64,000 nucleotides of DNA from Nitrospirota bacterium. GTDB lineage: Bacteria; Nitrospirota; UBA9217. The notes below the pieces were generated by a model that saw nothing but the letters and a program-made list of their open reading frames with translations, was not told the DNA's origin and ran no database searches. This document shows, one piece after another, positions 34,610-36,951 of this stretch. Made by a program: the position numbers and the translations under genes. Location of the stretch: positions 192,001 to 256,000 of the forward strand of contig CAWIYV010000014.1 of the NCBI GenBank assembly GCA_963840455.1, read 5' to 3'. The first letter of the stretch is position 1; every line of letters starts with the position of its first letter.

Positions 34610-35079
34610 GGTGCTCCGTTCCTGATGAAGACATTTCGTCAACACAAATCTCTTGGTTACTATACCATAAGTGTGTTGTTCGGGAAAGTGAAATCATCAA
34701 CACGCCGGAGGGACCGCAGTGCCTGCTGTTGACAGAAGTACGTGCATGCGTTGCGCGATGATGAGATCGATCACGCTGCATCGCGGATTTTTTTTACTGT
34801 GCGTGCGCGATGCGCCGTACGATGAACCATGACGAAGCTGTCGAACAAGGGACTGTTTGGCGGGAATTTCGTATACTTCGGTCCGGTCCGTGCTGCATGG
34901 CATGCGTGACGTGCCTGTCAGCTGAGAAATTTCGACTGAAGAATGCAAAACATGCGATACTATTAATAGTGGTGAAAATGGCATTCATACCAAAACATAT
35001 TGCACCAAAATATTTTGCGCTGATTTGTGTGTTGATAAATAGTCTAACCCCATGATAGTTAATTTTTTAATTTTTTTTG

Positions 35080-35109
35080 TTGACAAATCGTACACTCTTG
35101 TTGTATATT
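35080..35109 (+). promoter_or_regulatory. Sigma70 promoter with upstream T-tract (UP-like)
   Basis: TTGACA-18 bp-TATATT. Confidence 0.65.
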
Positions 35110-35130
35110 CGTCCACAGAGGTGAGGGAAA

Positions 35131-35697
35131 TTGCTAACAAAACTCTTCTCTTCGACAAGAGCAGAGCTTTTAAGTTTGTTCTTTAACAATCCGGATGAAA
35201 AGTTCTACCTCAGGGAGATAGCCCGCCACATCAGCAAGGACGCGGCGGGGATCAAGCGAGAGTTGGACACCCTGGTGAAGATAGGGCTTCTGGGAGTGGA
35301 AAAGCGGGGCGTGCAGAAATACTACTTTGCAGACAAGAACTCGCCGATCTTCTCCGAAATGAAGGGCCTCATCTTCAAGACCACCGGTATCCAGGGTTCC
35401 ATCAAGGCAGCGCTCTCGAGGCTGAAAGGGGTCCAGGCGGCGTTCATCTACGGTTCCTACGCCAAGGGCTCGGAAAAAGAGGACAGCAACATCAACCTCA
35501 TGGTGGTCGGCCAGGTGAACATCACCGAACTGAACGACGTGGTGATGGGTCTTGAAGAGAAGATGAAGCGCGAGATCGACTACCTGGCATTCGACGAGCA
35601 AGAGTACCGGAAACGGAAGGATGCAAAAGACCCCTTTATCCGGGAGATCGTGAAAGGCAAGAAGATATTCCTGCTGGGTAAGGAAGATGACATATGA
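35131..35697 (+). CDS. wHTH + minimal nucleotidyltransferase (MNT) protein with degenerate active site
   Basis: 'LFSSTRAELL..FYLREIAR' wHTH; 'YGSYAKG..SNINLMVVG' where DxD is expected. Confidence 0.85.
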   Translation: MLTKLFSSTRAELLSLFFNNPDEKFYLREIARHISKDAAGIKRELDTLVKIGLLGVEKRGVQKYYFADKNSPIFSEMKGLIFKTTGIQGSIKAALSRLKGVQAAFIYGSYAKGSEKEDSNINLMVVGQVNITELNDVVMGLEEKMKREIDYLAFDEQEYRKRKDAKDPFIREIVKGKKIFLLGKEDDI

Positions 35698-36169
35698 AGC
35701 GCTGCAAGAGATGGGACTGGAAGAGCGTGCAGCCGAGACCCAGGAGGTCTTGGGGCTCATGATGCGGGCCGAGCGCGATCTTGCCACGGCGCGGCTTCTC
35801 CAGGACAAGGACGAAGAATGGTCCTTTGCCGCAGCATACCAGGCAATGGCGCGGTCCGGACGGGCGCTCATCCTGTCCGAGGGCTACCGCCCCAAGGGTT
35901 CGCGGAGCAGGGACACGCACAAGACGGTGGTCACCGCGTCGGGGGTCATCCTCGGCGAGAAGCATAAGAGCCTCATCAACAAGTTCGACCGGATGAGGAG
36001 GAAATACCAGAACTTCGCGGTCGAGACCGGCAGCATGGTCTCCCGGTACGAGGCGGGGCAGGCGATCAGGGACGCAGAGGAGTTCTTTAGCCTGGTGGCC
36101 TCCCGGCTCAGGGATAAATACTCGCAGATGTCGCTGCTCAACGATGTACCGCAGCTTGTATCCAGATAA
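35687..36169 (+). CDS. HEPN domain protein with degenerate RNase motif
   Basis: 'RAERDLATA..AYQAM..GRAL..H..FDRMRRKYQNFAVE'; overlaps the MNT stop. Confidence 0.8.
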   Translation: MTYEALQEMGLEERAAETQEVLGLMMRAERDLATARLLQDKDEEWSFAAAYQAMARSGRALILSEGYRPKGSRSRDTHKTVVTASGVILGEKHKSLINKFDRMRRKYQNFAVETGSMVSRYEAGQAIRDAEEFFSLVASRLRDKYSQMSLLNDVPQLVSR

Positions 36170-36213
36170 AGCCGCTTAATTGATCGCGGTATCCGAAAGG
36201 GGGTGGACACTCA

Positions 36214-36273
36214 ATGCCGGCGAAGAAGAAAGCTGCCAAGAAGAAGGCAAAGAAGAAAGCGAAGAAGAAGTAG
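36214..36273 (+). CDS. 19-aa Lys/Ala-rich micropeptide MPAKKKAAKKKAKKKAKKK
   Basis: RBS GAAAGGGGGTG; ATG..TAG; paralog at 36421. Confidence 0.65.
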   Translation: MPAKKKAAKKKAKKKAKKK

Positions 36274-36420
36274 CTTTTCTCCTCTACCCCACCATTAATG
36301 GGGAGCGCCGGGGGACCAGGTCCCCCGGCGACATTAACCAGGCGATCCGTGCCCGGTTTTCGGGAACGGTTACCGATAGCTGACAATCCAGCCACTAACA
36401 GAAAGGAAGGTGATCCTCAC

Positions 36421-36480
36421 ATGCCAGCCAAGAAGAAAGCTCCGGCCAAGAAGGCCAAGAAGACCACGAAGAAGAAATAA
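36421..36480 (+). CDS. 19-aa Lys-rich micropeptide MPAKKKAPAKKAKKTTKKK
   Basis: RBS GAAAGGAAGGTGA; same length and N-terminus as the 36214 ORF. Confidence 0.65.
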   Translation: MPAKKKAPAKKAKKTTKKK

Positions 36481-36525
36481 CCGTGCTGCACCAGGCGGTG
36501 TTACCCGATCCAGAATGAACAAATG

Positions 36526-36557
36526 CCACGAAGCTCGCCTTCGTGGTTTTTGTTTTT
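36526..36557 (+). terminator. Intrinsic terminator
   Basis: CCACGAAG-ctcgc-CTTCGTGG followed by TTTTTGTTTTT. Confidence 0.75.
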
Positions 36558-36618
36558 CCGAGGAGGGCATACACGGCACCCTCTTGCATCACTGTGCGAT
36601 CGCTGTCATAATCAGTCC

Positions 36619-36951
36619 ATGGCCAAGCGGAACTATCTCAAGATCCACTCCTCTGCCAGGGCGGTCTGGACAAAAAGACTGCTCATCGCCGGGGCTTTGC
36701 TTGTCAGCATCATCGCCCTCTGGAAATTCGTTGTGGGCGAGATGGGGGTGGTGAAGTATTACCGCATGAGCGCGCACGCCCGCGAACTCCGGGACGGGAT
36801 CGAGCATCTAAAAAAGGACAACGCGCGGCTTTCAAAAGAGGTCACTGCTCTCAAGACGGATGCTGCTTTTCTCGAACGCATGGCCCGCGACAAGATCGGC
36901 CTCGCCCGGCCCGGCGAAGTGGTCTATTACTACGGCGACCCCCGGCAATGA
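36619..36951 (+). CDS. ftsB: Septum formation initiator FtsB/DivIC family
   Basis: TM helix, coiled coil, 'LERMARDKIGLARPGEVVY'. Confidence 0.85.
   Translation: MAKRNYLKIHSSARAVWTKRLLIAGALLVSIIALWKFVVGEMGVVKYYRMSAHARELRDGIEHLKKDNARLSKEVTALKTDAAFLERMARDKIGLARPGEVVYYYGDPRQ

Follow-up and report, generated by a model that had tools for sequence, protein, structure and literature searches.

What does a toxin–antitoxin-like gene pair do when both of its catalytic sites are gone? The question is raised by two overlapping genes in a 64,000-nt stretch of DNA (hereafter the window) from a Nitrospirota bacterium (GTDB lineage Nitrospirota; UBA9217; assembly GCA_963840455.1, contig CAWIYV010000014.1, positions 192,001 to 256,000 of the forward strand). 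The original prediction, made from the sequence alone, was that this MNT–HEPN pair had undergone coordinated loss of both sites and was possibly domesticated as a regulator, perhaps of Lys-rich peptides encoded downstream. We first examined whether the observation holds. Both ORFs are intact. Gene A (35131-35697, + strand, 188 aa) has a TTG start 6-7 nt after GAGGTGAGGG and encodes an ArsR-like winged helix (about residues 1-85) fused to an MNT nucleotidyltransferase-like domain. Gene B (35687-36169, + strand, 160 aa) overlaps A by 11 nt and encodes a HEPN domain. The pair lies among a divergent DEAD-box helicase gene, a gene for a DivIC/FtsB protein and one for a GH57 enzyme. GC3 is 0.74 for A and 0.81 for B, compared to 0.75-0.87 for the neighbours, so the description of the codon usage as host-like is fair, though A is on the low side.

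Profile searches assigned both domains. Gene A matched Pfam Polbeta PF18765 (E 1.4e-9, 38.5 bits against a cut-off of 26.9) and PF01909 (24.3 bits against 21), and B matched HEPN PF05168 (2.9e-9, 37.5 bits against 22). The two genes also strongly matched both components of the PADLOC candidate defence system PDC-M05, in which M05A is an ArsR-like HTH plus KNTase-like nucleotidyltransferase and M05B a HEPN protein (PDLC04368, 1.1e-54 and PDLC04374, 2.9e-19). In contrast, the MntA equivalog model for type VII toxin–antitoxin antitoxins (NF047752) scored only 26.4 bits against a cut-off of 60. Sequence-level HTH hits were weak (HTH_20, PF12840, E 0.066; HVO_A0114, 24.1 bits against 27.6). However, in a predicted structure of A (pLDDT 85), the N-terminal 85 residues superposed on the ArsR/SmtB-family repressors SqrR, HlyU, SmtB, CadC and CzrA (rmsd 2.6-3.1 Å over 80-85 columns), although there are no metal or persulfide sensing residues to point to. 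The C-terminal domain was closest to MntA chains (Foldseek E 2e-4 to 7e-4, TM to target 0.58-0.70), as in the HepT-MntA system of Shewanella (SO_3166/SO_3165; PDB 5yep, 6m6u, 7bxo; also 8xeh). A phmmer search of B against PDB sequences gave no hit, but a profile built from its orthologues hit 2hsb (E 0.0018), and the top fold matches of the B model were 2hsb, 1ufb, 1wol, 4nqf and 1o3u. HepT chains were only weak structural matches (E 0.13-1.1).

The catalytic residues are missing from both proteins. Gene A reads GSYAKGSEKEDSNINL, and HMMER alignments to the solved MNTs 2rff and 8xeh place its SNINL on their SDIDI/SDIDL. Among 146 full-length representatives of the wider wHTH-MNT family, 136 read DxD and 138 keep the GS serine, which is also kept, as YGS, in the window and throughout its family. 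D150 (in EIDY) is not supported as a third catalytic carboxylate, as the family consensus at this position is Asn (124 of 146). Gene B reads FDRMRRKYQNFAVE, where three canonical paralogues from the same phylum (loci L052, L053 and L064) read F[DN]RMRxKR[NH]xxIY[DE]. The window thus has R107 to Y, N/H108 to Q and Y112 to V, with E113 kept, whereas the canonical paralogues and 2hsb keep R-x4-Y. The homologous motif given in the original prediction, RRKRHxxxYE, is close to the RVKRHDFIYE of L064. One correction is needed, since the precedent it cited, AMPylation of a Tyr near the HEPN RNase motif, comes from DUF86-type HepT, while B is of the PF05168 HEPN-T type. For this type, Asp is noted often to replace the motif His, and a His elsewhere is conserved (Anantharaman et al. 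2013, PMC3710099). B of the window retains this other His (in DTHKT) together with the acidic residue at +6 (E113), though family-mates have Q, T, P or S at that His.

We next asked whether the losses reflect recent decay. Of the 120 listed homologues of A (80-98% identity), all but a few read S-N-I-N, and all 120 listed homologues of B read FDRMRRKYQNF. Median NG86 dN/dS in the window's family (f1) was 0.056 for A (378 pairs) and 0.092 for B (231 pairs). The pair is present in one copy in the window's own genome and was found in 131 of 301 sampled genomes of the phylum, all-or-none by family (f1, 59/63; f11, 23/23; f9, 0/50); the four f1 genomes without it are 63-87% complete. The order DEAD-box helicase, A, B, two Lys-rich ORFs, ftsB and GH57 is kept across f1. 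Orthologues also occur in Methylomirabilota, in 33 of 121 sampled genomes at E<=1e-64 (a tally that includes the unpublished G349 and G360). These conservation data refute the idea that the pair is a recently inactivated remnant on its way to being lost, for which the only support is the absence of both motifs.

The losses were not strictly coordinated but stepwise and repeated in different lineages. Among B orthologues, the canonical Tyr is absent in 19 of 19, while the Arg position is variable (Y, T, G, Q, W, S or R). Some distant orthologues still keep the Arg (f6, f14 and part of NC10) or DxD (family f2), the latter meaning that some members may still be enzymes. At the other extreme, the GS motif is lost (GP, or none) in distant orthologues, and NC10 orthologues of A have neither GS nor any acidic pair, for example NSHPPGEGLGAILLL. 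One large branch lost HEPN altogether yet kept A and the peptides. Catalysis therefore cannot be the conserved function.

These observations bear on whether the pair could still be a working toxin–antitoxin or anti-phage module, using non-canonical chemistry or a non-catalytic toxic HEPN held in check stoichiometrically by A. The strong PADLOC matches, the retained overlapping two-gene layout and the autoregulator domain would be consistent with this, and one PDC-M05 member protected E. coli against at least one phage (bioRxiv 10.1101/2024.09.26.614923). In addition, some MNT-associated HEPN proteins without the motif were still toxic in a genome-wide screen (PMC3710099), such that loss of the motif alone does not prove harmlessness. 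We nevertheless consider this explanation unlikely. The distribution is that of a core gene, single copy, all-or-none by family, in fixed synteny between housekeeping genes and under strong purifying selection, rather than patchy, multi-copy and in variable neighbourhoods. Moreover, canonical DxD pairs coexist as separate paralogues in related genomes. In a phylogeny, the A proteins linked to Lys-rich ORFs nest inside the PDC-M05A-type diversity and form one clade (SH-aLRT 84, not decisive, with subclades at 95 and 96), with canonical paralogues from the same genomes falling elsewhere.

If the enzymatic residues are not what is kept, what is? The most striking constant is one to three tiny Lys-rich ORFs directly downstream. 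In the window these are K1 (36214-36273, + strand), a 19-codon ORF MPAKKKAAKKKAKKKAKKK with the Shine-Dalgarno sequence AAAGGGGGTGGA 6 nt upstream, and K2 (36421-36480, + strand), a 19-codon ORF MPAKKKAPAKKAKKTTKKK with the Shine-Dalgarno sequence AAGGAAGGTGA. Between them lies a perfect 11+11 inverted repeat, GCCGGGGGACC-A-GGTCCCCCGGC (36307-36329, + strand), which has no T-tract and is possibly a hairpin that sets the K1:K2 ratio. A Lys-rich ORF follows the pair, or A alone, in 50 of 50 loci of a first set and in 77 of 80 of a second, where two of the three misses (L114 and L138) stop at contig ends. In contrast, such an ORF follows 0 of 13 canonical paralogue loci, and only about five such tiny ORFs exist in the whole 4.03-Mb genome. 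The suggested link between the pair and these peptides is the strongest signal of all. The commonest K1 peptide is encoded by 13 DNA variants in which 12 of 12 variable sites are at third codon positions, and for K2 the figures are 12 variants and 15 of 15.

We considered whether the Lys-rich ORFs matter as translated cis-elements rather than as peptides, with runs of AAG/AAA codons reporting Lys-tRNA supply or stalling ribosomes to tune the stability of the A-B message. The ORFs consist of 50-60% Lys codons, lie at the 3´ end of the message, and K1 is followed by a strong hairpin. This explanation is unlikely, however. Two distinct peptide types, K1-like and K2-like with the APAKKAKK stretch, are each conserved at the amino-acid level while the DNA drifts at third positions, and in several lineages the ORF has grown to 67-157 residues of H1-like protein. 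The ORFs also lie downstream of A and B, and in most lineages the next gene (lpxC) is convergent, so there is nothing to attenuate.

The upstream region is also conserved. A sigma-70-type promoter, TTGACA-18-TATATT (35080-35109, + strand; 11 of 12 matches), precedes A and is conserved in orthologues of two phyla. It is embedded in an operator-like element (35078-35117, + strand), TGTTGACA … TGTTGTATA … TCCACA; in relatives, where the element takes the form TGTTGACA…GTTGTATA…TCAACA, the last block is TCAACA, the inverse of TGTTGA. TGTTGAC was present in 90 of 96 unique upstream regions compared to 16 of 2520 shuffles, although TTGACA is also simply the -35 consensus. The inverted TCAAC was found in 19 of 19 NC10-like and 6 of 9 intermediate loci. 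The downstream half-site is degenerate in the window's own family (exact TCAAC in only 2 of 53) and is missing in the HEPN-less branch (0 of 15), so the operator model is weakest exactly here. Canonical paralogues carry different upstream repeats. The composite pattern is unique to this locus in the genome apart from 4 loose matches, giving no sign of further targets. Within A, the invariant columns lie mostly in the wHTH (L5, S8, R10, Y26, R28, K42, R43, E44, L45 and L48). An Rfam scan of 34650-36700 gave only two chance-level matches (E 0.42 and 0.99).

The genes are likely organized as one unit. The only plus-strand terminator, a 9-bp stem followed by TTTTTGTTTTT (36525-36557, + strand), lies after K2 and before ftsB. 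Contigs from RNA libraries of two studies bridge A-B (two records) and B-K1 (three records), and one runs from before K1 to the K2 start, though these libraries may contain DNA and a contig is not proof of one transcript. The absence of contig cover upstream of 35121 and downstream of 36488 fits the promoter and terminator but in itself proves nothing, and summed depth at K1 and K2 was not used because it is inflated by Lys-rich sequences of other organisms.

Collectively, we favour, with moderate confidence, the reading that the locus is an ancient, vertically inherited derivative of a wHTH-MNT/HEPN module of the PDC-M05 kind, built like type VII HepT-MntA pairs, in which neither enzyme activity is needed any longer and the selected unit comprises promoter/operator, A, B and the poly-Lys peptide genes. 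We hypothesize that A binds through its winged helix to the TGTTGA-type repeats overlapping the -35 and -10/+1 of its own promoter, as ArsR/SmtB dimers do on an inverted repeat over the promoter, and thereby sets transcription of the whole unit. The MNT-like domain would serve as a dimerisation or partner-binding scaffold, possibly still with a ligand pocket, and B as a non-catalytic partner or co-regulator that is dispensable in one large branch. DNA binding by A, repression, the A-B complex and the target of the peptides are inferred; a complex prediction of A(86-188) with B (median score 0.25 against a mark of 0.32) was evidence neither for nor against binding. There is precedent in MtlR-type proteins for a HEPN domain that lost the Rx4-6H motif and acts as a non-catalytic operon regulator (PMC3710099), though that HEPN family is a different one, with no MNT partner and no peptide cargo.

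The output of the operon would be one to three very basic 13-30-residue peptides, which probably coat nucleic acid. The long forms of the downstream ORF (loci L051, L040 and L046) share the Lys/Ala-repeat composition of the Chlamydia histone H1-like protein Hc2 and gave PF07382 scores of 38.3 (for the 157-aa form in L051), 32.7 and 18.1 bits. These are below the cut-off of 40 and reflect composition, and K1 and K2 are too short to scan, so no homology can be claimed. A possible but less likely alternative is that A and B do not act mainly on the promoter but work with the peptides as a nucleic-acid-bound assembly, either a chromatin or ribosome/RNA-associated complex or a loader or chaperone for the polycations. 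The linkage of A, with or without B, to the peptides through two phyla, the proposal that inactive HEPN domains bind RNA (PMC3710099), the resemblance of the longer peptides to HC2/H1 nucleoproteins and the net basic charge of both A and B are in line with this idea. The same charge makes a direct electrostatic sink or antidote for the +10 peptides unlikely, and the conserved promoter-embedded repeats and invariant recognition helix are more simply explained by a repressor.

The locus points to a set of 13-30-codon poly-Lys genes that gene callers miss and that are under purifying selection across two phyla; full-text searches, which covered only part of the literature, found no paper on such peptides. 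More speculatively, and only tentatively, a defence or toxin–antitoxin module may have been captured before Nitrospirota and Methylomirabilota diverged, or passed between them early, and rebuilt into the dedicated control unit of a bacterial "protamine". The dead MNT pocket and HEPN groove would now sense a nucleotide or RNA signal and, through the wHTH, set the dose of 2-kDa poly-Lys peptides that compact DNA or coat ribosomes, for example on entry into dormancy. The peptides would then be a new class of ultra-small nucleoid or ribosome-associated proteins with their own exapted pseudo-enzyme regulator. For annotation, PADLOC-type approaches would count this locus as PDC-M05 in every genome of these lineages although it appears to be a core, non-enzymatic derivative, such that defence censuses of Nitrospirota and NC10 are probably inflated by it. 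Finally, canonical paralogues, forms with DxD but a dead HEPN, DxN forms, NxN forms, fully erased motifs and HEPN-less forms together make an unusually clean series of a toxin–antitoxin-type module being exapted, which lets one ask which part of a pseudo-enzyme is kept, and why.

Two intact, overlapping plus-strand ORFs were found in the stretch, A (35131-35697, 188 aa), with a TTG start 6-7 nt behind GAGGTGAGGG at a position that is the same in orthologues, and B (35687-36169, 160 aa), which overlaps A by 11 nt. A matched Pfam Polbeta/NTP_transf_2 and gave weak HTH hits, while B matched Pfam HEPN above its cut-off. Both were matched by the models for the PADLOC candidate defence system PDC-M05 (M05A, 1.1e-54; M05B, 2.9e-19), though the score for the NCBIfam MntA equivalog was far below its cut-off (26.4 against 60 bits). 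An AlphaFold2 model of A (pLDDT 85) superposed N-terminally on ArsR/SmtB repressors (SqrR, HlyU, SmtB, CadC) and C-terminally on MntA/MNT chains (7bxo, 6m6u, 8xeh, 8xeo, 1no5). A model of B (pLDDT 85) was closest to the classical HEPN structures 2hsb, 1ufb, 1wol, 4nqf and 1o3u.

We next examined the two catalytic motifs, both of which had been reported as lost in the original prediction. A reads GSYAKGSEKEDSNINL, and HMMER aligned SNINL to SDIDI/SDIDL of the solved MNTs 2rff and 8xeh. A was also searched against 1.84 billion cluster representatives and the 146 full-length hits among the best 150 were aligned. Of these, 136 read DxD and 138 keep the GS serine; NxN is therefore a derived state. 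For B, we compared paralogous, canonical wHTH-MNT/HEPN pairs from genomes of the same phylum, whose A proteins read SD[IV]DL and whose HEPN proteins read F[DN]RMRxKR[NH]xxIY[DE] and carry a His in 'GHKN/QHKT'. The solved AF0298 (2hsb) shows the same R-x4-Y. The window reads FDRMRRKYQNFAVE, such that the Arg is Tyr, the Asn/His is Gln and the Tyr is Val, while the acidic residue (E113) and the upstream His are kept. The observation is thus confirmed, with two caveats. The precedent cited with it, AMPylation of a Tyr near the HEPN motif, comes from the DUF86/HepT branch, whereas the PF05168 'HEPN-T' group is described as one where D often replaces the motif His and another His is conserved (Anantharaman et al., 2013; PMC3710099). 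In addition, loss of a motif is not proof of harmlessness, given that some motif-less MNT-associated HEPNs were still toxic in a screen (PMC3710099).

To assess the age of these changes, we compared close homologues. All 120 listed for B (91-100% identity) read FDRMRRKYQNF, and of the 120 listed for A (80-98% identity) almost all read S-N-I-N, with a few S-S-I-N or S-D-I-N. The source names attached to homologues and loci are uncultured Nitrospirota/Nitrospirae MAGs, the closest being 99% identical in A, and DNA runs holding the stretch are labelled wetland, subsurface, freshwater and soil metagenomes. The genome has one copy of each gene. In a sample of 301 genomes of the phylum, 131 have A, nearly always in one copy and all-or-none by family, as seen for the window's family, f1 (59/63, where the four misses are 63-87% complete), and for families f11 (23/23), f9 (0/50), f10 (0/28) and f17 (0/25). 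Across f1 the order is fixed: DEAD-box helicase (divergent), A, B, Lys-ORFs, ftsB/divIC and GH57. Outside f1 the module sits next to a convergent lpxC-like gene (about 300 aa), with a tldD/pmbA-like gene (about 462 aa) following it in the loci without HEPN (loci L037-L049, L051 and L035, about +0.8 to +3.3 kb from A; genes named from their translations alone), a second, different fixed synteny. Pairwise Nei-Gojobori dN/dS in f1 has a median of 0.056 for A (378 pairs) and 0.092 for B (231 pairs), and within the genus is 0.01-0.06 for A and 0.03-0.13 for B. In a few assemblies (L121, L125; G209:C6:919389-919953; G227:C1:47211-47717) A or the A-B junction is split, shifted or holds an in-frame TGA, which could be assembly error or real disruption. 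On the basis of these data, we regard recent decay as all but excluded.

Analysis of 20 distant orthologous loci and of 80 named loci from a scan of GTDB species genomes revealed a graded series of A motifs. These read S-N-I-N-L in f1, S-D-[IV]-N-L in families f14 and f6, N-[DE]-I-D-L with the GS shifted in family f2, G-[AT]-I-D-L in two Thermodesulfovibrionia MAGs, and GP… and x-V-[DN]-L in a branch with 40-47% identity. In Methylomirabilota/NC10 there are stretches such as NSHPPGEGLGAILLL, with no glycine-serine and no acidic pair at all. B follows A with the same 11-nt overlap in the f1, f14, f6, f2 and NC10 branches but is absent from the 40-47% branch. In 19 of 19 aligned B orthologues the canonical Tyr is gone, and the Arg position is Y, T, G, Q, W or S, or in some lineages still R. 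The HEPN proteins linked to Lys-rich ORFs also share P-I-[SP]-[RK]-Y-E around window residues 117-122, where canonical paralogues read …[IS]-[TQ]-[ET]-T-[EQ], a clade-specific conserved Tyr that might mark the new function. A quick maximum-likelihood tree (IQ-TREE, 101 rows) placed all these A proteins in one clade (SH-aLRT 84), with support of 95 for the HEPN-bearing subclade and 96 for the HEPN-less one, while canonical paralogues from the same genomes sit in another clade with support 96. In a sample of 121 Methylomirabilota genomes, 33 have an orthologue-level match (E<=1e-64) and 50 match at E<=1e-20, a tally that includes the unpublished genomes G349 and G360. Four loci 43-83% identical in A (L109, L130, L136, L118) carry record titles of other phyla (Betaproteobacteria, Patescibacteria, Baltobacteraceae, Methylomirabilota), most likely reflecting binning or labelling noise rather than transfer. 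The picture is one ancient change of function, followed by relaxed, lineage-by-lineage erosion of the catalytic positions and, once, loss of HEPN. The 'coordinated loss' of the original prediction is true of the outcome but not of the process.

We then asked what is conserved instead. In an alignment of 24 A orthologues (38-90% identity to the window), 10 of the 15 invariant columns lie in the first 50 residues, including K42-R43-E44-L45 in the predicted recognition helix. Upstream of A, loci from both phyla share TGTTGACA (holding the -35), then GTTGTATA (holding the -10), then TCAACA, the inverse of TGTTGA, at about +1. TGTTGAC was found in 90 of 96 unique 133-nt upstream regions against 16 of 2520 shuffles, although TTGACA is also just a good -35. 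The inverted TCAAC was present in 19 of 19 NC10-like, 6 of 9 intermediate, 2 of 53 f1-like and 0 of 15 HEPN-less regions; in f1 it is degenerate, with TCCACA in the window. The presence of this half-site downstream of the -10 where HEPN is present (NC10-like and intermediate loci), and its absence from all 15 HEPN-less loci, could mean that B is needed for the second site, though the lineages are not independent. Canonical paralogues have unrelated upstream repeats, and the composite pattern is unique to this locus in the 4.03-Mb genome apart from 4 loose matches. A promoter was called at 35080-35109 (11 of 12 matches), together with a single plus-strand terminator at 36525-36547 followed by a T-tract.

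Directly downstream of B, or 30-60 nt downstream of A where B is missing, we also detected one to three ORFs of 13-30 codons that are half lysine, corresponding in the window to K1 (36214-36273, MPAKKKAAKKKAKKKAKKK) and K2 (36421-36480, MPAKKKAPAKKAKKTTKKK). With a fixed threshold, such ORFs were found in 48 of 50 loci of the first set, and the two misses (L048, L050) have a longer, less dense Lys/Ala ORF at the same place. In the second set, which shares some genomes with the first, the count was 77 of 80, with two of the misses (L114 and L138) ending at a contig edge. In contrast, none of 13 canonical paralogue loci has one. The whole genome of the window (G000) holds only about five comparable tiny ORFs, the others being a 28-aa MACGTRCCGMTKKKAVKK… with a Cys-rich head (C11:4141-4227, minus strand), a twin pair of 45-aa ORFs 1.6 kb apart (C4:125314-125451 and 126974-127111, minus strand) and a 21-aa ORF (C3:1972-2037, plus strand). 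A longer H1-like protein, encoded by a 108-aa ORF with a CxxC…CC zinc-ribbon-like head and a long AKKKPAKKK tail, lies outside the window in the same contig (C14:46804-47130).

Each of the Lys-rich ORFs downstream of A or B has a strong Shine-Dalgarno sequence, AAAGGGGGTGGA, 6-8 nt upstream. The commonest K1 peptide is encoded by 13 different DNA sequences whose 12 variable sites are all third codon positions, and for K2 the figures are 12 sequences and 15 of 15 sites. This is the signature of selection on the peptide. That the Lys ORFs are instead cis-acting translation sensors seems doubtful. In some lineages the ORF is 67-157 codons long and gave sub-threshold hits to the H1-like nucleoprotein family HC2 (38.3, 32.7 and 18.1 bits against a cut-off of 40), a compositional resemblance only. 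In several lineages (L033, L034, L116, L117, L119, L126, L129, L130, L132) the first peptide after B ends in …GKC, …GRGC or …GKGC, and in f2 in …KKRC or …KKKC. This C-terminal Cys, absent from the window's K1 and K2, may be a lipidation or metal site, or chance.

In the window, promoter, A, B, K1, K2 and terminator form one unit, with ftsB behind the terminator. Contigs from RNA libraries of two studies cover the unit and bridge A-B (X16 record 11, X17 record 19) and B-K1 (X15 record 7, X17 record 21, X18 record 25), and one runs from before K1 to the K2 start codon (X15 record 8). Such libraries can hold DNA, however, and a contig does not prove a single transcript. We also noted a perfect 11+11-nt inverted repeat with a 1-nt spacer and no T-tract between K1 and K2 (36307-36329), which could be a partial terminator, an RNA-processing site or a protein-binding palindrome.

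In light of these observations, we hypothesize, with moderate confidence, that A is a non-enzymatic DNA-binding protein that sits on the TGTTGA-type repeats over its own promoter and thereby doses the operon. DNA binding, repression, A-B contact and the target of the peptides are inferred, and the second half-site on which the model draws is weakest in the window's own family and absent from the HEPN-less branch. Also against the model, f2 members may still be enzymes. In this model, the MNT-like domain is kept as a scaffold for dimerisation, for holding B and perhaps for a ligand, B is a non-catalytic accessory that modulates A or binds the message, and the selected product is the set of polycationic peptides, which most plausibly bind nucleic acid. 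A structural assembly of A, B and the peptides on DNA or RNA is possible but less likely. A and B are both net basic, which argues against their being a simple electrostatic antidote to the peptides. It is unlikely that the pair is a still-active toxin-antitoxin or defence pair with non-canonical chemistry, though motif-less HEPNs can be toxic (PMC3710099). One PDC-M05 member did protect E. coli from phage (10.1101/2024.09.26.614923), while a survey of archaeal immunity calls the system's antiviral role unconfirmed (PMC12988326).

Inactive HEPN regulators (MtlR) are a precedent for one half of this idea, but we found no paper, in a partial search of the literature, on a core, two-phylum, pseudo-enzyme MNT-HEPN operon or on its poly-Lys micro-ORFs. 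While its function is still inferred, the finding is firmer and broader than could be known from the sequence alone. By descent the locus belongs to the PDC-M05 wHTH-MNT/HEPN group, yet it lacks the defining catalytic features of MNT and of the HEPN motif as well as the patchy, multi-copy distribution in variable neighbourhoods of a defence or mobile module. In our model, it works like an ArsR-type autoregulator with an exapted sensor or partner module.
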